Origin: Stegostoma tigrinum
Lineage: Eukaryota
Reading direction: 5' to 3'
DNA length: 64,000 nucleotides
Assembly: GCF_030684315.1 (NCBI RefSeq)
Contig: NC_081371.1
Coordinates: forward strand, 41,670,390-41,734,389
The position numbers were made by a program, and so were the translations under genes. Positions 2,873-61,455 of the stretch are shown here, piece by piece; within the stretch, counting starts at the first letter, position 1, and each line of letters begins with the position of its first letter. The notes under the pieces were generated by a model that ran no database searches, had not been told where the DNA came from, and saw nothing but the letters and a program-made list of their open reading frames with translations.

Positions 2873-5250
2873 TTTTCTCCCCAATATGCTTGAAAGCAGA
2901 AACTCTTGTGTGCTAGATGTTTAGCAGTTCAAGTTTCACTGTGCTAAGGTTTGTGTTAAAGAGGTACCTCTGAAAAATTCCACTAGAAACTTGTGTTTGG
3001 AGGTAAAAAGAAATAATGCCCCTCTCTGGTGAAAACAAATCATCAGCAAGGCTAATATTGAAGGAAACCGGATGAACTCTTTTTAAGATAATTGCAGAAT
3101 CAAGAGACTTCAAACAATTTCTAAAGGTAGTGCCATCAGAATCACCCTTCCAATGGTAGCTACTTTTGACAATCTGTTCATCATGGGCAAACTAAAGATT
3201 GAGTCTTTATTATTCTTATAGTTTGGACTCACCTCCCATCTTTATTCTATGCTTAAGTGTGTTGTACTTTTTTTATGTTTCTTTCGTGTCTGTAGTGAAT
3301 ATACTTACATTTTCTATAACTCAAAAAGGCCTTATTAAATTGGCTCCTTTTAAAACAAAAATATTCAGGCTGGGAGTAGGTATCAACAAGGGAAGAGATC
3401 CCTTCTCGATTTACGTTGTTTCAGCCAATCAACGGAGGAATTGAGCAAAGAAAGGAGTCAGGATTTCCTTCCTCATCCCGGAGTGTATCAATCTTAGAGT
3501 ATCCCATTGTGAGCCTAAAGAATGGTGAGTGGGGAGGCAGCCAATTGAAAGGCTACCTCCAGGAAGATTGTGACACCTGTGTTGCTGCTGGCAAGTGAGG
3601 GATCAGGCCCCCGTTTTGGATCTACCTCCAGGTCCCGAAATCCCTGGCACAATCTATCTCCCTGTTACAGAGCAAAGAACAATTGTAATGTTGACTGCGT
3701 CCTTCATCCCATTTCTTCTTTATCATCTAGTTGAAATAGTAAGCCAACACTAATCCCTGCCTTTTTCCCCTTTCATCTGCCACAAAATGTTAACCAAGTA
3801 TTTGCATTTCAAAGTAATAACTGAATACAGAGAAATTTATCAACTCATTGGTTGCTCATAAATTGTCGGGTTTTTCTATTTGTAATCTATATGTTAATTT
3901 TCACCTGTCCCTTGGTCTGTCTGCTTCCTGCTTCAGTTCATGTTAATAGCTGTGACTGTCCAGTTTGTACTTCGAAACCTCTTCAGTTTAGCAAAAGCAT
4001 CAGTACTCAGTAGAATTTACTTCACTGAATCCCAGTTGCTCAATGATATGTTTCCCAAATCCCTCAAGGCCATTGACTTTAATTAGTATCTCTATCCTTA
4101 ACCTATTGTATGTGCTCTTTTCCTGTTTCCTCTTTGTACTACGATGTAACAAATGCAAGTTGTTCTTGTAAAACACTGAGCCATGTGAACTTAATAAAAC
4201 AGATAGTAATAGTGTCCAGGTAAATCTGCCAAGCAACCATCAGGGTGATCAGCAGTTTAAGGCTGCAACCGCTGTAAGATCAAGGTGGGAGCCATATTTA
4301 TTGACATGCAACTTAAATCTATTAAATTTTCCAATACAACAAATATTCTACTGAGTGAGCATTTTTGACAAAAATGTGCATTTTAAGCTTTGCACCATAG
4401 CTTCAGGGGCTGTAATTTTTCTGAAGCTGGTTTGCTATATTAAAAAATCTCACAGCTTTCTGTAAATGGGCAATAAAGGAGGCCTAGTTAGAATTTCGTT
4501 ATCCGTTTAATCATTCTGATACTTTGCATAGCAAATTGCTGGAAGTGGGAGATGAAAACAACATGACAGCATCTGGAATCTGCTTGCACAGAGCAAACAA
4601 TTATATATCTCTTAAAACAACAAATTAGTAGATTCTGAAATGAATACCACAAGACCTGAAAAAGCTATTGAAAGTTAGAATTGTGAATAAATTTTTGAAA
4701 CAGGTACAGAAAAAAAATTAAAATGAATAAAGCAAGATTAGACTAAACAAGAGACAGAAAAGGTACACAAAGAAAATGTTTCTATTTACATTTATAAATC
4801 TTAAACATGTCAAATCTGAAGGAATTAGACCATTAGGTTTTTGTGTCAAAGAGGCTGGCTTGCAGTAATTAGCCTTATTACGTTATTGAAAATGCACGTA
4901 AATGTGAAATACTTGACTCAACTGTCCATGGCAAGTCAAAACTTCATCCTGTTTGATGTATTTGATCGGGGAGCCAGATGGTAAGGCTGTTTTTTTTGTT
5001 AAGCCAATGGCAAAGCAACATATGTCTGACAGGAACTCTTCAATTTCAGCATCTCATTGCACATCTGCACTCACTGTTGACAATTTCACTTTAAAAATGT
5101 AGTCTTTCATGGGTTGTAAGTGTCACTGTCCAAGCCAACATTTGTTGAGCAAAAGATAATGGGAACTGCAGATGCTGGAGAATCCAAGATAACAAAGTAT
5201 GAAGCTGGATGAACACAGCAGGCCAAGCAACATCTCAGGAGCACAAAAGC

Positions 5251-5279
5251 TGATGCTTTGGGCCTAGGCCCTTCATCAG
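5251..5279 (-). ncRNA. Decayed minimal hammerhead-ribozyme-like motif in pLTR
   Basis: CTGATGA-A-GGG cctagg CCC-AAAG-CATC. The GAAA and GTC positions are mutated relative to sister copies. Confidence 0.55.
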
Positions 5280-5559
5280 AGAGGGGGTGAGGAGAGGGTT
5301 CTGAAATAAATAGGGAGAGAGGGGGAGAGGCGGACCGAAGATGGATAGAGGAAAAGATAGGTGAAGAGGAGAGTATAGGTGGGGACGGGATAGGTCAGTC
5401 CGGGGAGGACGGACAGGTCAAGGAGGTGGGATGAGGTTAGTAGGTGGGAAATGGAGGTGTGGCTTGAGGTGGGAGGAGGGGATAGGTGAGAGGAAGAACA
5501 GGTTAGGGAGGCAGGGACGAGGTGGGCTGGTTTTGGGATGCAGTGGGGGAAGGGGAGAT

Positions 5560-6939
5560 TTTGAAGATGGTGAAGTCCACATTAATACCATTGGGCTGCA
5601 GGGTTCCCAAACGGAATATGAATTGCTGCTCCTGCAGCCTTCGGGTGGCATCATTGTGGCACTGCAGGAGGCCCATGATGGACATTTCATCTAAGGAATG
5701 GGAGGGGGAGTGGAAATGGTTCACGACTGGGAGGTGCAGTTGTTTATTGCGAGCCGAGCGGAGGTGTTCTACAAAGCGGTCCCCAAGCCTCCGCTTGGTT
5801 TCCCCAATGTAGAAGAAGCCACACCGGGTACAGTGGATAAGCATACTACATTGGCAGATGTGCAGGTGAGCATCTGCTTAATATGGAAAGTCATCTTGGG
5901 GCCTGGGATGGGGGTGAGGGACGAGGTGTGGGGGCAAGTGTAGCACTTCCTGCGGTTGCAGGGGAAGGTACTGGGTGTGGTGGGATTGGAGGGGAGTGAG
6001 GAGCGGACAAGGGAGTCACGGAGAGAGTGGTCTCTCCGGAAGGCAGACAAGGGTGGGGATGGAAAAATGTCTTGGGTGGTGGGGTCGGATTGTAGATGGC
6101 GGAAGTGTCGGAGGATGATGCGTTGTATCCGGAGGTTAGTGGGGTGGTATGTGAGGACGAGGGGGATTCTCTTAGGGCGGTTGTTGTGGGGGCGGGGTGT
6201 GAGGGATGTGTTGCGGGAAATGCGGGAGACATGGTCAAGTGCGTTCTTGACCACTGCGGTGGGGAAGTTGTGGTCCTTGAAGAACGTGGCCATCTGGGAT
6301 GTGCGGGAGTGGAATGCCTCATCCTGGGAGCAGATGCAGTGGAGGTGAAGGAATTGGGAATAGGGGATGGAATTTTTGCAGGAGGGTGGGTGGGAGGAGG
6401 TGTATTCTAGGTAGCTGTGGGAGTCAGTGGGCTTGAAATGGACATCAGTTACTAGCTGGTTGCCTGACATGGAGACAGAGAAGTCCAGGAAGGTGAGGGA
6501 TGTGTTGGAGATGGCCCAGGTGAACTGGAGGTTGGAGTGGAAGGTGTTGGTGATGTGGATGAACTGTTCGAGCTCCTCTTGGAAGCACGAGGTGGCGCCG
6601 ATACAGTCATCAATGTAACGGAGGAAGAGGTGGGGTTTGGGGCCAGTGTAGGTGCAGAAGAGGAACTGATCCACGTAACCTACAAAGAGGCAGGCATAGC
6701 TTGGGCCCATGCGGGCCACCCCGTTTGTCTGTAGGAAGTGGGAGGAATCGAAAGAGAAGTTGTTGAGGGTGAGGATGAGTTCAGCTAAGCGGATGAGGGT
6801 GTTGGTGGAGGAGGACCGGTCGGGCCTGTGGGACAGGAAGAAGCGGAGGGCCTTAAGGCCATCTGCATGAGGAATGCAGGTATATAGGGACTGGGCATCC
6901 ATGGTGAAAATGAGGTGTTGGGGGCCAGGGAATTGGAAG
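5560..6939 (-). pseudogene. PLE RT/GIY-YIG polyprotein remnant, frameshifted near 5840
   Basis: Two overlapping ORFs (5769-7106 and 5503-5844). The N-terminal ~55 aa of the 445-aa ORF is flanking non-element DNA. Confidence 0.85.
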
Positions 6940-12131: not shown

Positions 12132-13593
12132 TGGGCTGGAGGCTCCCGAGATGGAATAGGAGGTGCTACGCCTCCAGTTCCCGGGTGGTGTCATTGTGAC
12201 ACTGGAAGAGGGTTAGGATGGACATGTCTTCCAAGGAGTGGGAGAGGGAGTTCAAATTGTTCACAATTAGAAGGTGTTGTCGTTTGTCGCGAACAGAGCG
12301 CAGATGCTTGACAAAATATCTCTGAGCCTCTGCTTGGTCTCACCGACGTAGAAGAGGCCACATTGGGAGGGTCAATGCAATAGACCACATTGACGGATGT
12401 CCAGGTGAATGTCTGTCTAATGTGGAATGTTTGTTTTGTACCTTAAATGGAGGTGAGGGGGAAGTGTAGGGGCAGGTGTAGTACTTCCTGCACCTGAAAT
12501 GAAAGGTGCCGGGGGGTGGTGGGGTTAGTGGGGAGTGTGGAGCAGATGAGGGAGTCGTGGAGAGAGTGATCCCTACGAAAGGCAGATAGGAGTGGGGAGA
12601 GAAATATATCTTTGGTTGTGGGGTTAGACTGTAGTTTGCGGAAGTGATAGAGAATGATATGTTGGATGCGGAGGTTGAAAGGGTGATATGTGAGGACAAG
12701 GGGATTCTGTCTTTATTTTTGTTGGGTATAGGGAATGTGAGAGCAGAGGTGCAGGAAATGCAAGAGATGCAGTTGAGGGCATTTCCAATATCTGGAGGGG
12801 AGAAGTTACCGCCTTTGAAATAGGAAGACATCTGGTTTGTGCAGGAGTGGAACGTCCCGTCTTGGGAGGAGACGCAGCGGAGGTGGAGGAATTAGGGTAA
12901 GCGATCGCATTCTTGAAGGAAGGTAGGTGAGAGGAGGTGCAGTCTAGGTAGCTGTGGGAGTCAGTGGGCTTGAAATATATGTCGGTTTTGGGGCGGCCTC
13001 CAGAGAAGGAGACAGAGAGGCCCAGGAAGGACAGGGAGGTATTGGAGATGGTCCAGCTGAATTTGAGGTGAAAGTTGTTCGTAAAGTTGATAAACTGTTC
13101 AAGCTCCTTGTGGGAACATGAGGCAGTGCTGATAAAGTCATCAATGTAGCGGAAGAAGAGACTGGGGTTAGCGCCAGTGTGGCAGAGGAAGAGGGGATGT
13201 TCCACATGTCCTCCGAAGAGGTAGGCATATGGGCCCATGCAGGTGCCCATTGCCACTCCCTTAGTCTGTAGGAAGTGGGAGGAACTGAAAGAGAAGTTGT
13301 TCAGGGTAAGGACGAGTTTGGGTAAGCAAATAAAGGTATCGGTGGAGGTTGACTGGTTGGGCTTGCAGAAACGAAAGAAACAGAAGGTTTTTACCCCATT
13401 CCATCTACCTTCCCCAGCCCCACCCCTCCCCTCTCTATTTATTTCTGAGCTGCCTGCTCCCTCCCCATTCCTGAAGGAGGGTCCCGACCCGAAACATCAA
13501 CCTTCTTGCCTCTCTGATGCTACCTGGTCTGCTTATGTTCCTCCAGCTCCACACTGTGTTATCTCTAACCCCAGCATCGACAGTTCTTACTAT
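12132..13593. mobile_element. Penelope-like element with internal inversion (RT/GIY-YIG on minus 12132-13390; pLTR on plus ~13395-13593)
   Basis: ORFs 12624-13256 (MAMGTCMGP, FFRYIDD) and 12340-12831. Plus-strand terminal repeat with CTGAAGGA-GGGTcccgACCC-GAAACATC. Flanking ctttaaat at 12124-12131 and 13594-13601. Confidence 0.85.
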
Positions 13594-15139
13594 CTTTAAA
13601 TCCTTTCTTCTATGAGCTTCTAATCAGCCAATTGGCAATTTTTTTACCACCCGCATCTTTGCCATTTTCTTCTTTGTTTGTTCCACCTGTCTAAATTGGC
13701 ATCACAAGCTTTCATTCCTGTCTCAATGTAGGATACTTTGGCAGCTGTAAGAAACTCTAGCCAGTGAATAATGTTAGAATTCATTTTAATCCAGAGCTCA
13801 AGTATTTGGACTTGCTTCCAATGGCAGGAATTAATATGTGAAAGATACCACAGTATGGTGTAACCATGTTTAAACAATGCCTTACTTAGACTCTCATTAT
13901 GATATCAGAGGTGTAGGTTTAATCTGAATGTTACCAAGTTTAAAATGAAACTTGCAGAACATCAAAAGAAATCCATTCCTATTTCTTGACAAGCAGTAAT
14001 GAAGAAAAAAAAAGCTGGTTTTAATTAAACCCACCTGTAATATCATTTAAATCAGTCATTCACATCTTGTTCTATCTTCACATTGCAATGAACCTCTTAG
14101 AGGCCACTTCAGTGTTTAATCAGAACTTTGGAACTCTTGTGATTTCTGGAGATGTCAGTTAGATTTCCATGTGAGTGATGTTACTGCCCAGGTCAAACCA
14201 GTTCAGGTATTAGTCATCTTAGCAATTACCCATTGATTAAACATTAAAGCACTCAGCTAATATTTTGATACCAGAAAGAAAATGAAGATTAGAACATTTG
14301 GCCAAGTGACAAAATGCAAGCTAAGTAATTTATTATTTTTCTGAAATGCCTTTAAAATTATATCTGAACATCTGTCTCTGAAGTCCAGTTATGTGTGTAT
14401 AAAAAGGTACCTCTGATGGATTTTTAAGATACTTGCAACACACAAACAGATCTTTCAACTCAACAGGACCTTTTCAATGTTCATGCTCCACATGCACAGT
14501 CCTCCACACATCATTCTGTATCTATCCCCACTAGTATTTTCTTCTATTTCATTCTCACCCAGGTGTTTATTTTTCTTCCCCTTGAAATATATCTATAATA
14601 TTCACCTCAACTATTCCTTGTGGTTGTGATTTTCATAGTCAAACAACTTTCTAGCCGAAGAAATTTCTCCTGAATTCTGATGGATTTGTCGGTGATTAGT
14701 GATCGTAATAAATAAGGTGATTCACAATAAGACAACTCTACCTCTCAACCTTAAAAGTTATATTTTTGCATATACCAAGTGTTTAAGTGTTTGATCTTCT
14801 TTTCAACCATTTTCTTATCCTGCTCACGATCAGCCGGTTTTTCACCACAAAGCTACATGTATAACTGGGTGTGAGCACTCAAGCAGCTGATTCAAGTTTG
14901 TGCTACAAAGTTGCACAGGAGCTTAAATTACAACCATTTAGGGCAGACCCCCCCCTAGTAAGTGGAAAAGATGATGGCCATCAAACCCTTGCAGTGGATT
15001 CTCGACGATTTCAAATATCAACTTACAGGTTGACATCTTCAGTCTGTTATTCTTCTGGTCCTCAGTTCTATCCTTGCCTGCATGGGGAAACTCACACCTG
15101 GCATCAACCTTGGCACCGAAAATTATAATGGCAGAAAAC

Positions 15140-16209: not shown

Positions 16210-17271
16210 GCTCTCCTGGCTGAAGATTGTTGCAAAAGCTTCAGCTAATATTTTGCACTGTTGTGATGGGTACTTCCAACACTGAGGATGGGGATATTTG
16301 TGGAGCCTCCTCCTCCAGTGAGTTTTTTAATTGTCCACCACCATTCATGACTGGATGTGGCAGGACTGCAGAGCTTAGATGTAATCCATTCATTGTGGGA
16401 TTGCTTAGCTCTGTCTAACACTTGCTGTTTACGCTATTTGACATGCAACCAGTCCTGTTTGGTGATTCACCAGTTTATGCCTCATCTTCAGGTATGCCTG
16501 GTACTGCCCTGGCATGCCCTCCTGCACTCTCCATCGAACCAGGACTGATCCTCTGACTTGATGCTAATGAGTTGAGAAGTGGATATGTCAGGCTATGAGG
16601 TTACAGATTACGCTATGGTAAATTCTGCTGCGGTTGATGCATCACAGCATGGATGCCGGGTTGGAGTTGCTAGATCTGTGTTAAGTCATTCCTATTTAGA
16701 ATGGTGATAGTGCCACACAACAAATAGAGGTTTTTTTCAACGTGAAGGTGGGCCTTCGTCTGCACAAGGACTGTACAGTGGTTGCTCTTATTGACACTGC
16801 CATGGACAGGTGCTTCTGCAACTGACAGATTAGTAAGCATGAAGTCAAGTATGTTTTTCCCTCTTGTTGGTTCCCTCATCACTTGCCATAGGCACAGTCT
16901 AACAGCTATGTCCTTTAGGACCTGGCTAATTTGACCAGTAATACTGCTCCAAGCCACTCTTGGTGGTGGACGTTGAAACCCCCAGCCAGAGCACATGTTG
17001 TGACCATGACAACATCTGTGCTTCCTCTAAGTGTTATTCAACATGGTAGAGTACCGATTCCTCAGCTGAGGGAGGATAGCATGTTGTAATCAGCACAAGG
17101 TTTCCTCGTTTATGTTCAACCTGGAGACACAAGACTTCATTCGGGGTCCACAGTCAATATTGAAGTCTCCTAGTGCAACTCCCTCCTGACTGTATACCAC
17201 TATACCAGCACTTCTGCCGGGTCTGTCCTGCCATTGGGACAAAGTGTATCCAGGGATTTTGATGGTGGTAT
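16210..17271 (-). mobile_element. Second copy of the same APE-LINE family, opposite strand
   Basis: ORFs 17090-17353 (IPGYTLSQWQDRPGRSAGIVVYSQEG) and 16670-16996 (EPTRGKNILDFMLTN). Confidence 0.75.
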
Positions 17272-18008
17272 CAGAGATAATTGGACCTGCAAATACTGGA
17301 GAATCCAAATCACAAGGTGTAGAGCTGGCTGAACACAGAAGGCCAAGCAGCATCTTAGGAGCAGGAAAGCTGACGTTTTGGGCCTAGACCCTTCATCAGA
17401 AATGGGGGAGGGGAAGAGGGTTCTGAAACAAATAGGGAGAGAGGGCGGATTGGATAGAGGATAGGGAGGATGGACAGATCAAGGGGGCGGGATGAGGTTA
17501 GTAGGTAGTTTCCCTCACCTTCCTCGGCCTCTCTGTCTCTATCTCGGGCAATCACCTAGAAACCGATATCCATTTCGAGCCCACCGACTCCCACAGCTAC
17601 CTAGAATACACCTCCTCCCACACACCTTCCTGCAAAAATGCCATCCTCTATTCCCCATTCCTTTGCCTCCACCACATCTGCTCCCAGGATGAAGCATTCC
17701 ACTCCTGTGCAACTCAGATGTCCTCGTTTTTCAAGGACCACAACTTCCCACCACAATGGTCAAGAACGCCCTCGACTATGTCTCCCGCATTTCCTGCAAC
17801 ACATGCTTTGCACCCCATTCCCGCAATAACAACCATAAAAGAACCCCCTGTCCTCACATATCCCCCCACCAACCTTTGGATCCAACGCATCATCCTCCAA
17901 CACTTCCACCATCTGCAATCTGACCTCACCACCAAAGACATTTTTCCCTCCCCATCCTTCTCTGCTTTCCGGAGGGACCACTCTCTCTGTGACTTCCTTG
18001 TACGCTCC
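17272..18008. mobile_element. Penelope-like element with inversion (pLTR on minus 17272-17508; RT C-terminus on plus 17509-18008), cut off by CR1
   Basis: pLTR is highly similar to 5153-5300, with minus-strand CTGATGAAGGGTCTAGGCCCAAAACGTC. Plus ORF 17718-18098 has TYPPTNLWIQRIILQHFHHLQSD...SAFRRDHSL. Confidence 0.85.
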
Positions 18009-18009
18009 A

Positions 18010-20909
18010 GGGTTGAAGGATTGAAGTGTGTCTCTTTTAACGCAAGAAGGGTCAGAAATTGTGGGCCGAAGGGCCTGTACTGTGCTGTACTTTTCTAGAT
18101 AAGGGCGATGAACTTAGAGCATGGATCAGTACTTGGAGCTATAATGTTATGGCCAGAATGGAGACTTGGATACCATAGGCACAGGATTAGTTGTTGGATG
18201 TTCCGGGGTTTAACTGTTTCAAAAGAAATAGGGAGAGAGGTAAACGAGGTGGGGGAGTGGCATTGCTAATCAGGGATGCTATCACAGCTGCAGAAAGGGA
18301 GGTCTTTGAGCAGGGTTTTTCTACTGAGTCAATATGGGTAAGTCAGAAACAGGAAAGGAGTAGTTAATTTACTGGGAGTTTTCTATAAACCCTCCCAATA
18401 GCATCAGAGGCACTGAGGAATAGGTTGGGTGACAGACTATGGAAATGTGCAGAAATAATAGGGCAGTTGTCATGGGTGACTCCAACTTCTCTAAAATCAA
18501 TTGGAACCTCCTAAGTGCAAACAATTTGGATGGAGCAGATTTTGTCAGGGATGTCCAGGAAGAATTTCTGACGCAATATGCAGATAGGCCAACTAGAGGG
18601 GAGACCATATTGGATTCAGTACTTGGCAACGAACCAGGCCAGGTGTCAGATCCCTTGGTGGGAGTGCATTTTGGGGATAGTGATCACAATTCCCTGACCT
18701 TTACTGTAGTCATGAAGAGGGATAGGAGCAAACTGTATGGGAAAGTATTTAATTGGGGGAGGGGGAATTACAGTGCTATGAGGCAAGAACTGTGGACCAT
18801 AAATTGGGAACAGATTTTCTCAGGAAAATACATGACAGAAATGTGTAAGTTTTTAAGGAGCACTTACTACAAGCGCTGGATAGGTTTGTCCAACTGAGGC
18901 AAGGAAGGGATGGTAAGATGCAGGAACCTTTGATGACAAGACGCGAAGAACATCTAGTTAAGAGGAAGAAGCAAGCTTACTTAAGGTTGAGGAAGCAAGG
19001 ATTGGACAGGGCTCTAGAGGGTTACAAGGTAGCCAGGAAGGAACTGAAGAATGGATGCAAAAGAGCTAGAAGGGGGCTTGAAATAGTCTTGGTGGGTAGG
19101 TTTAAGGAAAATCCCAAAGCATTCTATTCTTATATGAGGGACAAGAGAATGGCCAGAGTGAGGGTAGGGCCGGTCAGGGATAGTAGAGGAAACATATGCC
19201 TGGAGTTGGAGGAGGTAGGGGAGGTCCTTAATGAATATTTTGCTTCAGTATTTACCAGTGAGATGGACATTGAACGATTGTGAGGGCAGCTTGAAACAAG
19301 CTGATATGCTTGAACAAGTTGATATTAAGAAGGAGGATATGCTAGAAATTTTGAAAAACATGAGGATAGATAAGTCACCTGGGCCAGATGGGATATACCC
19401 AAGTTTGCCATGGGAAGTGAGGGAAGAGATTGCTGTGCCTTTGGCAATGATCTCTGTGTCCTCACTGTCCACTGGAGTAGTGCCAGATAATTGGAGGGTG
19501 CAATTGTTATTCCCTTGTTCAAGAAAGGGAGTAGGGATAATCCTGGGAATTACAGATCAGTCAGTCTTACTTCTGTGGTGGGCAAATTATCAGAGAGGAT
19601 TTTGATAGATAGTATTTATAATTATTTGGAAAAGCATAGTTTGATTAGAAATAGTCAGCATGGCTCTGTGAGGGGCAGGTCATGCCTCACAAGCCTTATT
19701 GAATTCTTTGAGGATGTGACAAAACACATTGATGAATGTAGAGCAGTGGGTGTGGTAAATATGGATTTTAGCAAAGCATCTGATAAGGTTCTTCGTGGTA
19801 TGTTGATTCAAAAAGTAAGGAGGCATAGGATTCAGGGAAATGTGTCTGTCCGGATACAGAATTGGCTTCCCAAAAGAAGACAAAGGATGGTAGTAGATGG
19901 AAAGTATTCAGCCTGGAGCTCAGTGACCAGTGGTGTTCCACAGGGATCTGCTCTGGGACCCCTGCTCTTTGTGATCTTCATAAATGACTTGGATAAGGGA
20001 GTAGAAGGGTGGGTTAGTAAGTTTGCTGATGACACAAAGGTTGGTGAAGTTGTGAATAGTGTGGAGAGCTTTTGTAGTTTGCAATGGGACATTGACAGGA
20101 TGCAGAGCTAGATAAATAAGTGGCAGGTGGAATTCAACCTGGAAAAGTGTGAAGGTTGAATTTGAATGCATAATACAACATTAATGGCAGGATTCTTGGC
20201 AGTGTGGAGGAACAGAGGGATCTTGGGGTCCATGTCCATAGATCCCTCAAAGTTACTACCCAAGTTGATGAGTTGTAAAGAAGACGTTTGGTGTGCTGGC
20301 TTTCATTAGCAGTGGGATTGAGTTTAGGAGCCACAAGGTTATGCTGTAGCTCTATAAAACTGTGGTTAGACCACACTTGGAATATTGTGTTCAGTTCTGG
20401 TTGCCTCATTATAGGAAGGATGTGGAAGCTTTAGAGAGGGTGCAGAGGAGATTTACCAGGATGCTGCCTGGACTGGAGGCCAGATCTTATGGGGAAAGAT
20501 TGAGGGAGCTAGGGCTTTTCTCACTGGAGCGAAGAAGGATGAGAGGTGACTTGATAGAGTTGTACAAGATGATAAGAGGCATAGATAGAGTGGGTAGCCA
20601 GAGACTTTTTCCCAGTACGGAAGTGTCTATTACAAGGGGACATAATTTTAAGGTGATTGGAGGAAGGTATAGGGGAGATTTCAGATAGGTTTTTTGCACA
20701 GAGAGTGGTGGGTGCATAGAATGCACTGCCAGTGGTGGTAGCGGAGTCAGCCAAATTAGGGACATTTAAGTGACTTTTGGATATGTTCATGGGTGATAAT
20801 AAAATGAAGGGTATGCAGGTTATTTTGACCTTCGAGTAGGATAATAAGTTGGTGCAACATCATGGGTCAAAGGACCTATACTGTGCTGTACTGCTCTATG
20901 CTCTATGTT
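18010..20909 (+). mobile_element. CR1 (HER1-type) LINE, near-complete decayed ORF2 (APE + RT) and 3'UTR
   Basis: LKCVSFNAR, VVMGDSN, KSPGPDGIYP, PGNYRSVSLTS, GVPQGSALGP, SKFADD, RPHLEYCVQFW. Tail ctgtgctgtactgctctatgctctatg. Multiple stops and frameshifts. Confidence 0.95.
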
Positions 20910-27037: not shown

Positions 27038-27860
27038 TGTCACCGTTTGTGAACCCTGTTTTGTGTAGCTGTGGGATCAAGAAATGTACAGATGACCTGG
27101 AGCTGAGAGGGGAGGGTGTGTTAATGAGTGAAGCTGATTGGTTTGTGTACTTGGGCCCAAATATCAATGACAAAGGTCATTGTCCTGCCAACAAGATGAT
27201 TGGTTATTAGTTAGCAGAACAGCTTTAGTACTGAGAAAGACAGAGAGAAGCTAGCTCAGACTGGAAGAGACCCTCAACAGTAGAAAAACACTCTGTCTCA
27301 GTTCTCTGTAGTAAGTCACATTAATCCTGAGGCAAGCCAACTTATCCTTCCTTTAACAGATGCTGCAAGTTGTAATTGTGTGTTGGAAAATCACAGACCT
27401 GTCATAAGTGAAACAGCCACTGTGCACCTTTGGAAGCATTTGGAAAAAGAAAGGCCAAGAAGAAACTTTTGGATCAGCAAGAACTGTTTTCCCAGCTTTC
27501 TCTCTGCATGCGTTTTTATTTCCTGTTTANNNNNNNNNNNNNNNNNNNNNNNNNNNNNNNNNNNNNNNNNNNNNNNNNNNNNNNNNNNNNNNNNNNNNNN
27601 NNNNNNNNNNNNNNNNNNNNNNNNNNNNNNNNNNNNNNNNNNNNNNNNNNNNNNNNNNNNNTAGTTTGTAGAGTTTAATTCAATCTGATTAATTTATAGC
27701 TCAAATCTAATTGCCTGAAATAAATAACCAGAACCTGGAACTGAAATCAGGCATTTTCGGGATTTTGTACACTTCTTTTAAAAACTTTAACTGTTGTGAT
27801 GACTCCAGGTATGGGAGAGGGGCTTGATTTCTACCCTGCTACATCCAGTCAGAAGCGACA
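27038..27860 (+). mobile_element. Possible solo LTR spanning the assembly gap
   Basis: Candidate termini TGTCACC...GCGACA, AATAAA near 27719, LTR-like composition. No clean TSD. Confidence 0.3.
27530..27661. other. Assembly gap (132 N)
   Basis: Run of N. Confidence 1.
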
Positions 27861-32270: not shown

Positions 32271-33165
32271 AACAGTAACATCCTAAAAGAAAATGTCCAC
32301 TATCAATAAATTCTTCACATGCATTGATATTTTCTAATCAACCTATTCAGGGATGTTATGACAGAGCAGATAGGTCTTTGACCCAGGCCCGCTGGCTCAG
32401 AGGTAGGAACATTACCACTTTGGTACCATTACATGAAACTGTGATGATTTCTGACCCAGAAGCAACACAGTAAAGAAACATATAATTTCTTTTAAAGTGT
32501 GCAGAAGCTGCTTTTGTGCTTAAGTATGTTTGAAACTGTTTTTAAGAGTTTGCACCATCATAAAGGGATCAATAGTAATCTTAAACAGGAAGAAATATTA
32601 GTTCATACAAACTAGCAAGTTTGACCTGGAGGCAATGCACATATGAAGGAAGTTAACATGTGAAAGCTGTGCGGCCGGCAGACATTCCAAAGACCTGCAA
32701 ATAAAGGACAACATCAGCGGGAGCATTAAAAAGGTGACACACATACAAGGTAACATGTGTGTAATACTTAAGAGATTGAAAGCTGTTTAGAACGGAAATT
32801 ATATACTTCAATTTTACCAGAGCTTGTCAAACCATTTAACAAGATTTTTGAAAGTGACAGTGAAGGAGTCTTTGGGGATTTTATGTCGTCAAGACAGTCA
32901 CGAACCTTGTTAAGAAGGCTTTGCACGATGGTGTCAGTTGATTAATGACCAATCTCTGGGGAATTTGGATGGAGTGCAGCTACTGTTATAGATGACATGA
33001 GAATCAAACCCATTGACCGAGAAATGTTATGTTCCAAGACCAAGTTGGAAAGACTGTAATTGCACATGATGCAATATTCGTGTGAGTTGTGGTGTGAATA
33101 TTTGTGATTGTATAAAACATATCTTTATTGTACTGACTGCTTAAAGGAAACTCACCTTTCTAGTT

Positions 33166-33378
33166 AACAATGTGTGAAGCTGGATGAACACTGCAGGCCA
33201 AGCAACATCTCAGGAGCACAAAAGCTGACATTTCGGGCCTAGACCCTTCATCAGATAGGCCCGAAACATCGGCTTTTGTGCTCCTGAGATGCTGCTTGGC
33301 CTGCTGTGTTCATCCAGCTTCACACTTTGTTATCTTGGATTCTCCAGCATCTGCAGTTCCCATTATCTCTGATACAAT
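33166..33378. mobile_element. Fold-back (palindromic) pLTR-only Penelope insertion, family A
   Basis: 33165-33241 is the reverse complement of 33256-33332 (14-nt loop). Perfect 14-bp TSD tcacctttctagtt at 33152-33165 and 33379-33392. Confidence 0.9.
33227..33254 (-). ncRNA. Minimal type I hammerhead-ribozyme-like motif (best-preserved copy)
   Basis: CUGAUGA-A-GGG ucuagg CCC-GAAA-U-GUC. Conserved core boxes and GUC triplet are present; stems I and III are minimal. Confidence 0.65.
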
Positions 33379-33819
33379 TCACCTTTCTAGTTGATGTATC
33401 AACTGGCACTTATTCATTCATAATTTGCAATAGTTCTAATTGATGTTAAAATAGAAGCTATAAAAACTGGAATCTTGTTGGGAATTTCTTCATTCAGCAG
33501 TTATTCAGTAAATTTTGTTGTTCTGATTTACAGTTGCCCCACAGAGCTTGTAAGAGAGCAGGTTTCAGGTGACAGTAAACCTTGAAATCAATGAAGAATT
33601 GGTTGTAAAAAATATAATCTCCTTTCAGATGAGGTACTTGGATGACTGGCTTCTTATACCCACATTAATCTTACAATCTTGTGTTTTTTTTTACGTTTCT
33701 TTTATAAATCATCAACTTTGAAATTGCGCAGAGCTAACATCCATGTTTAAGCATTATATGTACCTATATGTGATTTAGTAACAGTTATTTTAAGTGCATT
33801 ATCCTCCTTGATTAACATT

Positions 33820-42283: not shown

Positions 42284-42446
42284 TTGAAGACATTGCAATA
42301 CAGCTCTTCTGTTGGGTAGCATAAGAAGCATTTAAGTTTACATGTGTTTTTTTTCTAATTCCCAAGAGTCATTTTGAGTTGCTGTGATGCAGTTAGCAGC
42401 ATCAAACAATGTTTGTTGGAAGTCTCTCAGTGAATAGCACAACCCA
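42284..42446 (-). repeat. Two-segment inverted templated duplication
   Basis: 42284-42321 is the exact reverse complement of 43968-44005 (38 bp). 42321-42446 is the exact reverse complement of 43295-43420 (126 bp). Flanked by catacgtt at 42278-42285 and 42445-42452. Confidence 0.95.
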
Positions 42447-45400
42447 TACGTTTAGTAATAGTGATCAGGCATCATTGTGTGAGGACCAAATCCTGACTTG
42501 CCCGATCAGAAGTGTTGTGCAACTGAATTTAAAATAAAGTACCAGAGTCAGGAAAACCACAAACAGTGGCAAGCAATATCAATTCTCTGACCACACAGTT
42601 CCCCAAGAAAGACAACCAAGAATCTGTCTGCATAGTTAACTATTTGAAATAATTATTAGAGAAAAATTGAAATCTTATTCAACAAAATACTTGAAATGAA
42701 AGTGGGAATGTTTAGATTTTATATTTTTGACCACGAGGATGACATGTCTGCAGTTTATTTATTGCTGGTTTCTTATTTTCCTGATGTATGTAAAAGTTCA
42801 GACAGATACAAGCCATTCTCACTGCTTTAGAAAAGATCATTGTGTTTTCTTTCTTCCTTGTGGGAAGAGAAAAGTTCTGTTTTCTAGTCAAGGCTTCCTC
42901 ACAATGATGTGATTGAGATGAGTACGCAGCAAATTGTGGGAATCACACTTCTGTTCCATCTCTATGTGATACTATATTTGGCATCCTCCATTTGCGAATC
43001 TAGGCAGATATTGTTGGCTGACTGTTCTCTCATGAGAGAAATCACAGCTTGGTTCATTCCTATTCTCATCTAATATCCAGACAGGTTTTAAGTTAATGGC
43101 AAACAGCAAACCCCGACATGATTTTTATTTCCCTTCATCACTCAAGAGATGTTGAGGCTAATTTGCAGAGCTCCACAAGCACTGTGTCTGAGATTAGCTT
43201 ATTCGACAGAGACCAGGATGTGAACTTGGCACTTTCCTACGTGTATAATTCATCACACACTGCATGATTCATTTATTGCTGTGCCCGCTAATTCTGGGTT
43301 GTGCTATTCACTGAGAGACTTCCAACAAACATTGTTTGATGCTGCTAACTGCATCACAGCAACTCAAAATGACTCTTGGGAATTAGAAAAAAAACACATG
43401 TAAACTTAAATGCTTCTTATTTTAAGAAATGGTCAGATAGTAAGGAAAAAAATGACACTGACTGAGCTTTTCCTGGGCATTTGAATTGTTAACTTCTTTA
43501 GCACTAATTTAATTTATGAGCTAAATAGCTTTCAAGCTGCCCATTTTAAAAACCTAATGCTGAAAGAGACAATCATATTGTAAACAGAACAACTGTCAAG
43601 TTTTGCTGTTCTTTTACTTTTTATAACATTTGAATAAAATTCAGTGAAGGTTGAGGCTAGCATATCAAAACCTCTTCTCTCAATTTAAACTAATCCATAG
43701 CCTGAAGTCTCTCATTGCCGTTCAATTATGACTGTAGAAATGATAAATGAATGAAATATTTAATAGAGCTGATTAAATTTGCTCCTTTCATATTAGTTAG
43801 CTTATAAGTAACATTTAAATAATTATCCAGATTGAAGACAACATTACAAGATTGTAATGTAGCTTTTTTGACTGTTTAGCAGAATAACAAGGAAAATCTA
43901 ACCACTGAGATGGTGGCAGTTTTTAATAAAGGAACCATCTGGCATTGCCACCTATTTGCTGTGATATTGCTACCCAACAGAAGAGCTGTATTGCAATGTC
44001 TTCAAATTGGTGTGACAGCAGCTGCACAATTCAATAATAAGAAAACTGACACCACCACTCATGAAACTGATTGAAGTTTGATCAAATGTAGAATTCATTC
44101 TTTTAACAAAAAATCTGGGCTACAATTGGCATTAGATTATTCATATTATTCTAATGTTGGTTGAAGGAGCTAGAGTTCATGAGCACTACAAATGAATTAA
44201 TCAATCAGGAACCATTGAATGTTTTCAGCAAGTTATTTGTCCAGGTGGTATATACTGCATCACACGAAGTGTAAACAATACACATGTACCTTTGTTTAAC
44301 TGATATCCTGTGTTAAAATGATAATTGATGAGAAATTAACTAACAACTACTGATAAATGATGTAATATAGTGTCTCCTATTCAAGGGCACCTTTAAATTC
44401 TTGACAATTGATTTTAAGTCTTTAAAGTTTTCAAACTTTATGAAAAAATAATGAGCATCTCTCGATATATGAGGGAGTACTGGGTGGAGTTTCAGGAAAT
44501 TCATTGTTATCTAATAATGATGATATGTGACAACTGTTTGTGGTATGGTAGATGATCATTTACACTTAAGTGACAAGGTCACCATTGAGTTATCTTGACT
44601 ATTGTGACTCAAGCAGACATCATTTATCACCAATGTTTGTGTATTCTATTCTTGTACATGTGGCTACAACATGTGAAAAATTATCACAAAAGTAGCATAA
44701 ATACAAACGGTGGATTTTTTTTGTAATGTACAGTTTCAAAAATGATAAAGAATTATATGGGCTTGTTATTACTCAGACTTTGCATTCCAAATTGTACACT
44801 TTGTTTAAATTGAAAAATTACAGTTCTATCCCCAGGCCATTTGATATTTATTGTTTTTTTTTAATGGAGGTTTTTTCCTCTCTTATCTGCTGATTAAAAA
44901 GTAATAAAATTTCCATTTATTTTGCCAGGATTTGAATTTCAAACTATTTTCCGGAATTTCTGCACACACCTACTGGCCTCCATTTTGATTGAAAATACAT
45001 TCATTTGTTCAAAGAATGCTTTCGGAATAATTACACATGGCTGGCACTCGTGTTTTTTTTGAAAAAAACTACACAAAAGATCATTTTTCTCTTCACTATT
45101 ACCTCTGATTTTACCTGTTTATGTAACCCTCAAGGTGTGAAGTGAGCAAATCTGGGAAATAATTCCTAAAATAAGTTGAGGAGTTGTAGATCAAGGTATT
45201 TCTGTTGATGTTATTTGCAGATGAGGGTGATGACAAAGCAGCAGTCCATTTTCAATCTTTTATGATTTTATTCTCACTCTTTGTGGCTTCATCAACTCCA
45301 GATCCAATCTGGATGGTTTTTGGCCATTTTTCTTTGCTATCTTTTAAGTTAATGTGTTCAGCTAAACTTATAGTTTTATGAAACAAAAAAGTTGAAAATA

Positions 45401-46305: not shown

Positions 46306-46676
46306 TTTTCCATTTGGTCCAGCCCAATGTTACTGTTTGGTTCTGAACAGAATGTAATATAGGCTTTAGGCCTAGAAACAGGCCTGCATCATCTCATTTC
46401 TGGAAGGCTCACCAAATTTATCTGCCTGTCAGAAAAGTGTTGGGCAGGGGGTAGGTCTTGCCCAGAATTAAGAATTCTATGATCAAAGATTATCCTCCCA
46501 CCCTTCACACTAATCCTGAGACCTGCTAGATGATTAGAGGGTGGTAGCTCTGTATTTTTCCGAAATGCCACTGGTGGAGTGGTGGCAGCTGCTGGTAATG
46601 TATTCAGGCCAGGCCCAGGATTGGCAAGCGACCCAGACTGGAGGTGAGTGATGACAAGATAGGTGTCAGAGTGGGG

Positions 46677-46879
46677 GAGAGATAGTAAGAACTGCCAGTG
46701 CTGGAGTTAAAGATAACACAGTGGGGGGCTGGAGGAACAGACGCAGCCTAGGCAGCGTCAGAGGAGCAGGAAAGCTAGACCCTTCTTCAGTGATTTCTGA
46801 AGAAGGACCCTGACCTGAAACATCAGCTTTCCTGCTCCTCTGATGCTGCCTGGCCTGCTGTGTTCCACTAGCTCCATAT
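46677..46879. mobile_element. Fold-back pLTR-only Penelope insertion (family A variant)
   Basis: Inverted arms (tcagaggagcaggaaagct / agctttcctgctcctctga). Plus core CTGAAGAAGGaccctgaCCTGAAACATC at 46797-46824. TSD tgtcagagtgggg at 46664-46676 and 46880-46892. Confidence 0.85.
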
Positions 46880-49800
46880 TGTCAGAGTGGGGAGCTGTGG
46901 GGCAAAATGAGAAAGGGAGGTTGACACCAAAGACTGAGAGTGGCTCTCAATATCTCCTTCACTCAATGCCAGGTTCCTCAATCAGCCATCGACAGTTTTT
47001 GAACAAGCTTCCCTACCTTGGAAAGCCACAAGAAACTCTGATAGGGTTTTCTTTTCTTGATTCCCACATGGCAAGTCCTCCATCCACCATTGGGTAAATA
47101 CCTGCAATACTAGGATGAGGACTTTAATTCATTAATTGAATACTTAAAAGTTTTCAATTGGCTGCGAAGGGCATCCACCAACCTTTATGTCCTAACCTTT
47201 GTTGCAGGAGAGGTAGATCACGTGTTAGGTCTCCTCTGCCTTCCCACTTGATTAATTGCCCCTGCCACTAACTTGCCATGCGGAAGGGCTTTCAATTCCA
47301 CCCACGAAAAATATACTAAAATTTCATTTGGCCTTTTTAAAACATCTGCTTTCCAGCACTTGCCACAAAATTAGGAGGAAAAATGTACTTTGCCTGTATG
47401 TTAAACATTTTCTAGGGCAACACTAACAGCTATCAATTGCACTTCCAAGATTTTTGGGCGTGTGCTGTTTGTTCAGATATGTTTGGCTGGACATTAGTTT
47501 GGAGACAGGGAGGCAGTAAAGGATGGGAGGTAGGACAAATGTTGGCCACCAGGAGCTATCTGATGGTAATTGTGGTGATGATGGTCACTCGTGGTCAGAA
47601 AGGCCCAATCACTGACAGTCAGATAGTTAACTAGGAAGTTTGTTGGGCCTGGAAGAGATACTCCTGCTCGTGAATTGGTAGAAAAAAAGCAGGCCATCGA
47701 TTCAAACCCTCCTGTTCCCTACCTCCTGCCCAATTTTTGCAAAGCCGGAATCCTGCTTGGGGAGGTTAAAAACGGAATCACTTCAAATGAAGGCACAGAG
47801 ACCTCATTAAAATATTTAAATGACCATCCAACCTAACCCTGCCCAGGTTGGTCACTTGTCCATCATCCTATCTCCTATAAAGCTGCAAAAGATCAGGTTT
47901 AATCTGGATTGGCTTCTTGGTTCAAATTTCTGGAATTTTAACCTTCCAGATGAATCAAACTCAACCATTCAAGGGGAAATTCCCCACCCAGAATTAAAAT
48001 GTACTTCATACCATTGCTGGTGTGCCTCAGTCAGAATGTAAGGTACCATTTAAGAAATTTCTACTGACTTCAGTAGTTCAGCAGTTAATTTTACTTGTGC
48101 TTTGTGTTAGCATTTATGTTACACCATTGTTCTGGAATTCACACATGGTTTTGAAAGAGATAAACCATCTTTCCAAAGATCCATTTATATGACAGAAATC
48201 TTTATTGCAGTTTTAATAATAAGCAAGATGGCTTACAGGGAGACATGTTTTCGTTATTATAAAAGTCTACTTCCTCAGTTGTGAGGATATAATCAGCCAG
48301 ACAGCCCAATCAAAGCATAAGTATACTGGGCAGAAATGACTAGTTCTTTTGATTATCATGGGACAATAGGCTTCAAATGTGCAACCCTTGAGGGTTAACT
48401 TTGATCTTTATTACTGTAGACAGATCTGGAACCTCCCTGAAAGCTTAAAACTCATCATAGCCACTTTCAAGTTAGCAAAAGGACAATATTTGATTCACAG
48501 TCTGCCCACATTTATTTCCTCTCAGGACATCAAACAGGATTGAATAAAGTCATTATAGACAATTGTCTAAGAGCTATAAATGCAAGAAACACTTTGACAA
48601 TCCAGTCCAATGTCTGAGGATTCACATTTTAAAATATCGGGATAAGTCACCGTTTTTCTGAAATTATTTTGATGGATTTCTCCAGGACTCGGAGCTGGAG
48701 ATGAATGATTTCAAAGCCTATTTTGAAGTTCAAGTTTGCTTTGGATAAAATTTATACAGCTGAAGGGCTAGCAAATCTGTCTTTGGCTTCTGACAGGGCA
48801 TCCTGAAGATCATTTGGCATCCTAACAAATTCAGAACAGCTATCTGAGGCCATTTAGTTATTGGATTTGTTGTGAAGATTTCTAAACATTATGCTGTAAG
48901 ACATTGTTTCATTATATACACAGTTGGCCAATTATATAAATGCATCATATATTTATACAGATAACATATTTATATCTTATGAGTAGTTTATAGCAATGCA
49001 CATGTCTATTTACCTTGCGATTAATTCCACAAATGTGAAGCACATATATGTTTTCAGAATAGTGATTTTCTATTTCATTGCTGAATCTGAGATAAGCCTC
49101 ACTGAGCTTGGATCACAGTGTAATTTTGTACCATGTCCAAAGAGCTGAACTGGGTCAGTGCTTTTATGAGGGCACAGGAAGGATTATTAATCTGATGGCA
49201 GAATGCAAGACCCAGAAAAACACAGCTCCTTGCTGTCATTTTCTGTATGGAGGCCAGTCCGCTTGTTTTGATAAATGTTCGTCCATGAGACCATCACAGC
49301 AATTCTGAAGTCAGCAGTACTCACTCAAAATTCCTCAAGTACACTAAATTCAGGTACTTCTAAATAAGGTTGTGAATTCAAATTCCTTCACCATTTTGAA
49401 CAGGCATTTTGAACTACAATGGAAGAGCCGTCCTTTCTACTTGCCTCTTGAATAGGAATGATCCAAATATTCCAATTCCACAAGGCTGTGTATCTATTCA
49501 CAGGCCGAATTGACCATGAGCAATCTTAAATGTCACTTTTAACAAACATGCCATTGATTTTAAAATGAGTTTTGTTGCTTTGGCTTCTGGCATAGAGTGT
49601 AATTGTTCTTTGTCACTCCCTCTTCCCAATGGCAGCATGAAATCTTATGACTAGATGCATGAAATAGTCCAACTAACAAGCAAACTTCAGACTCGTTCTC
49701 AAAGGATACAATCTGAAAAAAGTCTCAATAATGTAAAATGTTGTTTCCATGAAAGTGCCTGAAATAGACAATTTCAAGTGTATTTTGAAGAAAGGCAGCT

Positions 49801-50175
49801 TTGTGCCTTGAATTAATTTCTCCTTCTTCTTTTGATTGCTATAATTGCCTTTCTCAGTATTGCTTTACCAGCATTCTCCATTAACTGACTCACAAACTAA
49901 GGTTTCTCAGTGGCAGCTATTTAAGTAACAGAAGCTCAGCACCATTGGAAATCTGATTGCTGACTGAGGATGAATTTACAATACAATACAATACACAACT
50001 TAATTTGGCTCCAGGAATCTAACCCATGTTTAATTTAAAGATTCAATTCAATTAAAGTTTTGTAGTTTTTTGACAAGTAAATCTGCAATCAGATTCTTTT
50101 ATATGTTCTGTGCTTCCGAACCATTGTTATATACACAGGGAAAGGAACAAAACATCAGCTAAATGTATCTTAAAA

Positions 50176-50820
50176 TGGCCACCCAAGTGGACAGGGTTGT
50201 TAAGAAAGCATATGGTGTTTTGGCTTTCATTAACAGGGGGATTGAGTTTAAGAGTCGTGAGATCTTGTTGCAGCTCTATAAAACTTTGGTTAGACCGCAC
50301 TTGGAATACTGCGTCCAGTTCTGGGCGCCCTATTATAGGAAAGATGTGGATGCTTTGGAGAGGGTTCAGAGGAGGTTTACCAGGATGCTGCCTGGACTGG
50401 AGGGCTTATCTTATGAAGAGAGGTTGACTGAGCTCGGTCTCTTTTCATTGGAGAAAAGGAGGAGGAGAGGGGACCTAATTGAGGTATACAAGATAATGAG
50501 AGGCATAGATAGAGTTGATAGCCAGAGACTATTTCCCAGGGCAGAAATGGCTAGCACGAGGGGTCATAGTTTTAAGCTGGTTGGTGGAAAGTATAGAGGG
50601 GATGTCAGAGGCAGGTTCTTTACGCAGAGAGTTGTGAGAGCATGGAATGCGTTGCCAGCAGCAGTTGTGGAAGCAAGGTCATTGGGGTCATTTAAGAGAC
50701 TGCTGGACATGTATATGGTCACAGAAATTTGAGGGTGCATCCATGAGGATCAATGGTCGGCACAACATTGTGGGCTGAAGGGTCTGTTCTGTGCTGTACT
50801 GTTCTATGTTCTATGTTCTA
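50176..50820 (+). mobile_element. Young 5'-truncated CR1 (HER1-type) LINE
   Basis: Uninterrupted 189-aa ORF (RPHLEYCVQFW...FFTQRVVRAWNALP) and a (TTCTATG)n tail. Confidence 0.95.
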
Positions 50821-57082: not shown

Positions 57083-57638
57083 GGAGCTAACATAAGGATC
57101 ACAGCTTGATAGCTGATGATCTCAAACTATCACTGCTCCTGGAATGCTGACAGTGCTGAATTAAGCACCAGTTACCACTTATTGATGAATCCTCACTGCT
57201 GATCAGACAACCCTGATTACAAAATATTTGGACAAGCAACGACTAGATATTTGTGAGCACAGAACTCTAACAGGAGACTTACCACGTTCGGGAGCTACAA
57301 AGCTAGAAGCCTTTTCCCTCTTTTGCAAAAGTACAAAACAGTTTCAGCTTGACATTCTCACAAAGGCTAAGGTATAGAAATTAAAAGACTTCTTGTAAGT
57401 TAAACAATGAGGTTTGCAGCTAAAAAGGCTTCATATAGGCTTATAATTAACGTTAACAGTCAAAGGCTACAGCCTGTCTAATTATACAGCCCTCCTGTAC
57501 AAAGAATACCAGGGTTTTAAGGGATAAATGGTAAATGACTAGGCCAGACACGTTTACCTGTATGCAGTACTTGGGTGATGATGTCATTTTGTTTCCTTCA
57601 ACTTCAATGAAACTTTCCTTCAATGAAAGTTAATGTGA

Positions 57639-57867
57639 GATAACAAGGTGTAGAGCTGGATGAACACAGCAGGCCAGGCAGCATCAGAGGAGCAGGAAAG
57701 CTGACGTTTTGGGTCTGGACCCTCCTTCAGAAAAAAATTCAGAAAAGGATCCAGACCTGAAACAGCAGCTTTCTTGCTCCTCTGATGCTGCCTGGCCTGC
57801 TGTGTTCATCCAGCTCTACACCTTGTTATCTCAGATTCTCCAGCATTGGCAGTGCCTACTACCCCCT
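57639..57867. mobile_element. Fold-back pLTR-only Penelope insertion (family A variant)
   Basis: Near-perfect inverted arms 57636-57720 / ~57750-57833. TSD tgaaagttaatgtga (57624-57638) / tgagagttaatgtga (57868-57882). Confidence 0.9.
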
Positions 57868-58239
57868 TGAGAGTTAATGTGATGTCATCAGGCCTTATTT
57901 GGTGAAAGGTCTCTCCTGGCTGAAAGCTTCTACCAAAAGCCTTTATTTCTTAAAGGCACAGACACACAAACTCTGTAAAACTACTTTAAGCAATTACAAC
58001 TATGCAAAATACAGTAGAAACAAAAGAAGAAATAACAAGGGCAAGCAGTGAACCAAGTGAAAGAAAGAACAATTAAACTCTGCACCCTACTTTCAGAAAT
58101 CAAAAAGCCACAGACTTACAACAGCAAATTGAGGGCTAGCATTAGATTAAGGATTGAGCAGAAGGTGACATTTTCAGTCAGCTGCAGCTATTTTGTAAAA
58201 CAAAGTAGGTTACTTTGCATATAAGCTATTAATGGCGCC

Positions 58240-60850: not shown

Positions 60851-61079
60851 TCAAAATTCTGCGCATGCTGGAAATCTTAAACAAATGCAGAAAATGCTAG
60901 AGAAACTCAGCAGGTAGGCAGCATCCGTGGAGAGAGAACCAGCGTTAACTTTTCAAGTCCAATACAAACAGTTTTAAAGGAGAACCATGTTGGACTCAAA
61001 AGATTAATTCTGGTTCTGTCTCCACAGATGCTGCCCTACGTGTTGTGTTTCACCAGCATTTTCTATATTTGTTTAAGAT
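60851..61079. mobile_element. Fold-back pLTR-only insertion, family B (older)
   Basis: 60874-60962 is a diverged reverse complement of 60990-61079. No TSD recognised. Confidence 0.75.
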
Positions 61080-61455
61080 ATGCAACAAACCCAAGTCATA
61101 CAAAGTCATTACTGGTCATGGTGCTGTACTGCAAAGGAACTAAAGCTGGTTCTGACCAATCATGTACTCAAAGAGTGAGGAAAGAAACCCTGACAACGCG
61201 CATTGTGTGGTGATACTGAGAGACATCAAGCACTGACAAGACAAGCAAACTGTCAGTCAAGAGTAACAAAGAGTACACTGGATCTGGGCAAGTTGTCAAG
61301 CCTCCAGTGCATTATTTCAAAGGTTGATCTATGAACATTTTTAGCTCTATTTCTGCCTGCAGATGTGTGTAGCTGTTGGATTGACAACATGATTCTACAT
61401 GCAATGATATATATTTGTTTGGGATTTCTTTCATTTTGAAAAAAAATAGGGATGA

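Follow-up and report, generated by a model that had tools for sequence, protein, structure and literature searches.

The window analysed here, a stretch of 64,000 nucleotides from Stegostoma tigrinum, contains four short palindromic insertions (stubs) that consist of two inverted copies of a Penelope terminal repeat (pLTR), which raises the question of how such fold-back structures are formed and whether the hammerhead-like motif in the repeat contributes to their formation. All four palindromes described in the initial annotation of this stretch are present (Table 1), with arm identities of 85%, 74%, 88% and 75% at loci 1 to 4. The locus at 60851 is unlike the other three and aligns with a separate family B, while loci 1-3 belong to family A, and the proposed derivation from two repeat families is therefore retained. 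Positions in family A are numbered from the C of CUGAUGA (position 0), which places the predicted cut between +27 and +28 according to the published layout (PMC4209133); at locus 1, the cut would fall just 3' of 33227 on the minus strand.

Palindromes of the window and their parent element

The TSDs previously reported for three palindromes were recovered at loci 1-3, and the flanks of locus 4 gave none when checked for a TSD. The arms are unequal as described, with the long arms of family A ending near +127 and the short arms near +92. Their meeting point differs from the earlier description, in which every centre was assigned a hammerhead-like core: it is the heads of the repeats that adjoin, and intact core letters are present in two of the eight window arms (33254 minus and 46797 plus), the CUGANGA box being eroded in both arms of locus 4. 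The letters of the best core copy at locus 1 had been read as they are written, but this copy carries UG where the family has a self-complementary CG. The exact consensus core pattern had no match in the window, and an Rfam search of the window returned no hammerhead and only sub-threshold miRNA and snoRNA matches, the weak miRNA matches falling at loci 2 and 3. Such hairpins are at risk of being misannotated as MITEs or microRNA precursors.

Table 1. Penelope-derived features of the window.
Feature	Coordinates	Strand	Remarks
Coding copy of the parent family A1 element, 5'-truncated	5154..6905	-	RT fragment, frameshifted GIY-YIG, 3' UTR, tailed terminal repeat 5154-5279
Probable longer head-to-head family A2 insertion	12340..13595		Coding fragments minus 12340-13496; tailed repeat plus 13420-13595
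Probable longer head-to-head family A2 insertion	17268..18098		Tailed repeat minus 17268-17458; coding fragment plus 17505-18098
Locus 1, left TSD	33152..33165		14 exact (17 with 1 mismatch)
Locus 1, right TSD	33379..33392		Pairs with 33152..33165
Locus 1, self-inverted stretch	33162-33335		Unpaired tail to about 33378
Locus 1, short arm	33166..33255	-	Family A1, about -1 to +92, without tail
Locus 1, minimal hammerhead core letters	33227..33254	-	CUGAUGA, stem II, GAAA, UG, UC; layout per PMC4209133
Locus 1, long arm	33256..33378	+	+13 to about +135; tail present, CUGAUGA absent
Locus 2	46664..46892		Family A2; TSD 46664-46676 / 46880-46892, 13 exact
Locus 2, self-inverted stretch	46725-46875
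Locus 2, long arm	46678-46790	-	Internal deletion inside core
Locus 2, short arm	from 46793 (-4)	+	Core letters 46797-46824
Locus 3	57624..57882		Family A2; TSD 57624-57638 / 57868-57882, 15 with 1 mismatch
Locus 3, self-inverted stretch	57632-57837
Locus 3, short arm	to 57733 (-3)	-	Core mutated
Locus 3, long arm	from 57738 (-2)	+	Core mutated
Locus 4	60851..61087		Family B; old head-to-head pair; long arm minus, short arm plus; core eroded
Locus 4, self-inverted stretch	60866-61087

The assignment of the arms to Penelope terminal repeats is supported by coding copies with RT and GIY-YIG that end in the same repeat, including the A1 copy of the window, whose repeat shares 95.6% identity with the long arm of locus 1. 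A protein-level search of the genome yielded 106,679 first-look candidates with open frames of up to 1105 aa. The parent frame contains the motifs DKG, MG..GP and RYIDD, a CX4CXXC linker and YCIHC..YIGET. The RVT_1 profile matched one of two proteins (E 6.9e-6) and the GIY-YIG profile gave E 0.016, both under Pfam's cut-off; Pfam searches of the window RT fragments and of the frame at L122 left the RT unrecognised, and a PDB sequence search with the parent protein found no relative. Judged by its motifs and architecture, which carry the call given the weak profile matches, the parent is an endonuclease-bearing (EN+) Penelope-like element (PLE) with a single ORF in which a predicted RT is followed by a C-terminal GIY-YIG domain. 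Its linker (CNRRKCYTC at aa 921 of the L123 frame) is of the CX2-5CXXC type that characterises the region between RT and EN in Neptune and Nematis (PMC8557442), and the putative clade assignment rests on this match of the linker motif. Copies of the pLTR are found both upstream and downstream of the ORF in L125 and L122, and since the upstream repeat of both loci reads through +127 into the ORF region, the "tail" represents a piece of the front end of the element. Across family A, the 3' ends cluster near +92 and +127. The ORFs of L121-L132 show an N-terminal third with a Pro/Thr/Ala-rich repeat of variable length, and many of these copies keep frames of 800-1100 aa, which indicates a young family.

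Orientation, ends and heads of the arms in a genome sample

The arrangement of the repeats was assessed in 142 tiles of 10 kb, taken at round coordinates from large contigs and totalling 1.42 Mb. These tiles contain 346 family A arms, whose close neighbours form 73 head-to-head, 2 tail-to-tail and 1 tandem arrangement, so that palindromes are more frequent than chance adjacency would give. After removal of 11 arms at tile edges and one arm without upstream sequence, 334 arms and 72 close head-to-head pairs were retained. A TSD was found in 58 of these pairs, including 28 of the 29 from the youngest subfamily, in comparison to 7 of 300 shuffled flank pairs, while the search detected none at the remaining 14; a single TSD flanks the pair as a whole, as expected if each palindrome arose from one insertion event. 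The duplications measure 8-19 nt (52 of 58 within 11-17 nt) and comprise 58 distinct sequences instead of the fixed short TSD of a transposon, which upholds the retro mechanism proposed at the outset. The outer ends combine one long and one short end in 68 of the 72 pairs and two long ends in none, both arms derive from one subfamily in 70 pairs, and 68 pairs have distinct junction coordinates. Stubs have a median length of 196 bp and a density of 50.7 per Mb, which amounts to about 160,000 copies in the genome, provided that the tiles are typical. Family B follows the same orientation in the tiles and the window, with 24 close head-to-head and 0 tail-to-tail neighbours among 111 arms and a TSD in 11 of the 24 pairs. 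Separately, DNA-run contigs that correspond to window positions 33332-33372 show opposite-strand joints between the +92 end and the +127 end (up to 50 contigs for one joint), which are rare tail-to-tail arrangements, perhaps caused by repeated insertion at one site.

This layout is not restricted to short insertions. Another 11 pairs, from the first 128 tiles and with gaps of 0.2-3.7 kb between their arms, carry a TSD, and 6 of 12 long-ORF loci possess outer long and short ends that face apart over 3.5-5.6 kb. The palindromes occupy the lower end of the size range in which the element normally inserts, and they are no separate family, because ORF-bearing insertions of kilobase size share the same layout. 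A three-part insertion at L004:1511-1962 consists of an inverted short arm, a copy that runs from -4 into the ORF start, and a G followed by a second copy from -4 to +125; it looks like a template jump after run-off.

The heads of the arms are concentrated at one place, with 78 of the 334 arms starting at -5 to -1, which corresponds to 15.6 per position versus 0.6 upstream and 2.5 downstream. The predicted cut at +27/+28 is about 30 nt further downstream than this wall, which contradicts the idea that the copied RNA starts at the ribozyme as a cleavage product. Among the matches listed, DNA-run contigs have loose ends at -1 (at least 380) and at -4 (at least 124). In subfamily A1, eight of nine arms that start at -4 are preceded by a G where the element has a C, and the letter before a -4 start is G in 5035 and A in 806 cases genome-wide. 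This G is itself preceded by G or T in 1821 cases, a filter that removes the commonest explanations of the extra G by the partner arm or the 3' UTR. Inspection of 15 G-headed copies left 6 unexplained, 7 being explained by the partner arm and 2 resembling 3' UTR variants. When subfamilies are pooled, the extra G is equally frequent in wall arms (19 of 82) and internal arms (22 of 94; p = 1) and is clear in A1 only. An extra G is regarded as the mark of copied caps at full-length L1 5' ends (PMC11702581), and the Penelope element of D. virilis has an internal promoter (PMC2377424). The arm heads and the A1 signal point to a likely capped RNA start near -4, with most templates remaining uncut. 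A recurring start at +13 among the 30 best matches was discarded, as the query itself began at +13.

Probable formation of the palindromes at each insertion site

The two arms of a stub resemble each other more than they resemble arms elsewhere. The arms overlap sufficiently for a comparison in 64 of the 72 pairs. With CpG columns excluded, the two arms of a locus differ by 0.091, as opposed to 0.134 for arms from different loci of one subfamily, and the within-locus distance is the smaller one in 59 of the 64. Of 22 pairs, 17 have the same five-site diagnostic haplotype in both arms, where shuffling gives a mean of 6.4 and a maximum of 12, and rare variants recur in the partner arm in 15 of 132 cases versus 2.3 expected. 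Between loci, short-short, short-long and long-long comparisons give about equal distances (0.079, 0.084 and 0.088 in A1), and the locus 1 junction is found at 5 places genome-wide. The similarity within loci could partly come from later gene conversion or hairpin repair. Together with the distinct junctions, these distances agree with the check proposed in the initial annotation for formation at each insertion.

Whether one or two syntheses are involved can be read from the heads of 68 pairs: 23 of them have a short arm that reaches further 5' by 10 nt or more, 13 have a long arm that does so, and in 32 the heads lie within 9 nt of each other. Arms that are not nested require two syntheses, which favours the previously proposed double priming over fold-back of a single cDNA; the 32 near-symmetric heads could also arise by trimming or later central deletion. 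We consider it probable that each palindrome was built on site, with both target strands nicked by the enzyme of the element and each end priming reverse transcription near the front of the RNA. According to this model, two staggered nicks, about 11-17 nt apart, would free two DNA ends, each of which would prime its own reverse transcription from one of two fixed internal start points at about +92 and +127. The cDNAs would run off at the probably capped RNA 5' end near -4 or stop earlier, and their ends would join, often via short homologies, with both primings occurring in one event on one or two RNAs. If the template is a tandem or a circle, priming in its downstream terminal repeat would give longer arms. 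The stubs themselves are likely dead ends. Contigs spanning an empty insertion site were sought, and among the matches listed none was present, nor was an empty or orthologous allele seen.

Several components of this model have precedents. EN+ PLE insertions are described with an inverted 5'-truncated pLTR, a one-sided tail of 30-40 bp and a TSD (PMC3846280, PMC8557442, PMC8969392, PMC2377424), and they share with the stubs the head-to-head inverted repeats, the 5' truncation, the TSD around the whole unit and a difference of about 35 nt in arm length (37 bp for Pen2a of Adineta). Differences to these published examples, as far as the available text of the sources describes them, are the large share of insertions that consist of two repeats only (median 196 bp, about 50 per Mb), TSDs of 11-17 nt instead of 8-10 in the Adineta examples, and the proposals made there, which invoke self-priming or endonuclease resolution and not priming from both nicks. 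The Poseidon protein of the anole Anolis carolinensis (PAc) nicks and extends both strands in vitro, starts reverse transcription at two internal sites, one on either side of the tail, and inserts uncut RNA as main template, insertion being unaffected by ribozyme mutants (PMC11167929). Both the extension of two strands and the paired internal starts have their counterpart in the process proposed here, as have a hammerhead located just upstream and the uncut main template. In contrast, PAc belongs to the Poseidon clade, whereas the linker of the present element is the CX4CXXC motif of Neptune/Nematis, and stub palindromes and a capped run-off end are absent from the available description of PAc. 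L1 twin priming, in which a second RT starts from the reciprocal DNA end and yields an inverted 5' arm with a 12-18 bp TSD and junction microhomology (PMC11702581), resembles the proposed process in its second-end priming, inverted arm, preserved TSD, microhomology and extra G. Unlike in the stubs, the two arms of L1 are, in the same account, copied from different regions of the RNA, with the first priming on poly(A); here, both starts lie within about 35 nt and the arms overlap almost wholly. In the literature covered, which left subscription papers and Repbase/Dfam entries outside, neither PLE stub palindromes in cartilaginous fish nor twin priming in PLEs were found. The architecture as such has already been published for PLEs, and the stubs are ordinary in kind and not a new class of mobile RNA.

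A single priming, after which the cDNA folds back and self-primes the inverted arm, has been proposed for inverted Penelope junctions in Adineta (PMC3846280), and it predicts near-identical arms as well as symmetric junctions at self-complementary 4-mers. Such junctions do exist genome-wide, with 566 at the AGCT that begins at the predicted cut, 209 at GGCC +15 and 21 at GGCC +55, the control pattern for GGCC +15 being degenerate at CpG and covering both subfamilies. A copied arm must however nest within the first, and the 23 of 68 short arms that extend further 5' hold at least 10 nt that the long arm does not contain; with the tail confined to the long arm, non-nested arms are already the pattern, and the fixed end at +92 is left unexplained. 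Fold-back is thus an unlikely source of the stubs in general, and it may account for some of the symmetric junctions. It is still harder to credit that the stubs are longer inverted insertions whose centre was lost later by hairpin or cruciform deletion. Long inverted insertions exist, many junctions contain short homologies and some are symmetric, but heads left by deletion would be expected at any position, the 3' UTR included, whereas only 6 of 144 close-pair arms start upstream of -7 and the heads form a sharp wall at -5 to -1 with an extra G.

In the initial annotation, the palindromes were presented as a candidate non-autonomous ribozyme retroelement system, that is, a hairpin or retrozyme-like family whose transcripts are cleaved by their ribozyme and inserted again as a unit. 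Non-autonomous PLE derivatives are on record (PMC8557442 on MRC1; bioRxiv 10.64898/2026.07.22.740005), the copy number is very high, and one junction recurs 566 times. A master unit should appear as a junction common to many copies, and this is not what the sample contains: 68 of 72 junctions are distinct, the locus 1 junction is rare and no arm-specific lineage is visible. The 566-copy symmetric junction stands apart and could represent a small amplified subfamily. Animal non-LTR retrozymes are likewise short, non-coding, pLTR-related and hammerhead-bearing, but according to the available text of their description (bioRxiv 10.64898/2026.07.22.740005) they form families of their own, arranged head-to-tail with two sense ribozymes per transcript, whereas the stubs are inverted pairs without a master copy, and the 346 arms of the tiles include one close tandem. 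Each strand of a palindrome carries one of its two cores; a transcript therefore holds a single sense core and has no means of forming a dimer in cis; both cores are intact in 2 of 72 close pairs. The locus 1 transcript is predicted to fold into one long hairpin (-147.6 kcal/mol, z -17.9), in which the cores are buried and stem II is taken apart. With stem II disrupted and the second core on the other strand, the palindrome itself is, on this folding model, unlikely to be a working ribozyme. The variable junctions and the within-locus similarity of the arms remove the case for a non-autonomous family, the layout extends to ORF-bearing insertions, and we regard this reading as highly improbable. 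It is scarcely conceivable that the stubs are MITEs derived from a cut-and-paste DNA transposon, or that two insertions came to lie side by side by chance or by targeting: only the hairpin shape speaks for a MITE, and these readings are refuted by variable TSDs of 8-19 nt, by unequal ends without matched terminal inverted repeats in arms that are the termini of an RT element, and by the excess of head-to-head (73) over tail-to-tail (2) pairs within a single flanking TSD.

The hammerhead core and possible cleavage

At each core position, the hammerhead letter is found in the majority of 192 family A arms, and family B has the same layout. Metazoan PLE minimal hammerheads consist of CUGANGA, an extra base, stem II, GAAA, a palindromic helix III of 2 nt and UH, and opposite-strand pairs 100-700 bp apart are described in Schistosoma (PMC4209133). 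The motifs studied here share this layout and their occurrence as dispersed single motifs, and differ by a stem I of just 2 bp in family A and 4 bp in family B; cartilaginous fish are not among the animals named in the available text of the same source. The head of family B, as seen in the tiles and at window positions 773-873 and 53793-53920, shows the 4-bp stem I and a U at the cut base, and by these letters family B is the better-formed candidate minimal hammerhead. Stem changes within family A are one-sided only (stem II U-G in 136 and U-A in 41 arms), in comparison to T in 117 and A in 70 arms at a free core position. Across families, the second stem I pair occurs as C-G, U-G and U-A, and the pairing is kept. 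The minimum-energy fold predicted for a single arm differs from the catalytic fold (z 0.39).

Cleavage in vivo would be expected to place arm starts at the predicted cut. In the tiles, no significant peak is present at this position, with 5 starts at +28 versus 2.1 expected (p = 0.06; p = 0.18 for +26 to +30). Genome-wide, 3454 starts at +28 compare to 1621 at +35, a difference confounded by the symmetric junction, which accounts for 40 of the first 100 matches listed. If two cDNAs ended by run-off on cut RNA, they would be able to anneal at the self-complementary AGCT, and the 566 symmetric junctions at this sequence give a confounded hint of in vivo cleavage. Their excess could also stem from the flanking A/T run, position effects, central deletion or the amplification of a small subfamily. 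The ribozyme is probably not required for most stubs, and a minority may derive from cut RNA. Two further observations concern same-strand units: a joint from about +38 back to -2 at L125:1377-1417, and two G-headed matches on one strand, 59 bp apart, at G000:C1:2722788 and 2722847. By their arrangement, they suggest rare tandem hammerhead units that would be able to dimerise in cis.

Taken as a whole, the stubs would record an insertion cycle in which twin priming is obligatory and uses two fixed internal sites of the RNA. The cDNAs would run off at a capped end, 4 nt ahead of the hammerhead; a minority would instead do so at the ribozyme cut and then anneal at AGCT, as in the 566 junctions. 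This combined reading is put forward tentatively, with somewhat less than an even chance of being correct in all its parts. If true, it explains the signature of inverted repeats with one tail and provides genomic evidence for in vivo cutting by a metazoan minimal hammerhead. The transposition cycle of Penelope and the role of its hammerhead are listed as open questions (PMC11167929, PMC8557442). Here, the stubs offer many independent measurements of ends and junctions that discriminate twin priming from fold-back, and their ends predict the sites of RNA start and RNA cut.

Other repeats of the window can be recorded alongside the palindromes. A run of 132 N at 27530-27661 is irrelevant to them. 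An inverted repeat of 126 nt (42321-42446 and 43295-43420), 100% complementary and with its copies 848 nt apart, may represent either a young DNA transposon or a further inverted insertion. LINE-type RT fragments are found on both strands (18433-20685, 50163-50732 and 52091-53833) and presumably resemble CR1-like LINEs.
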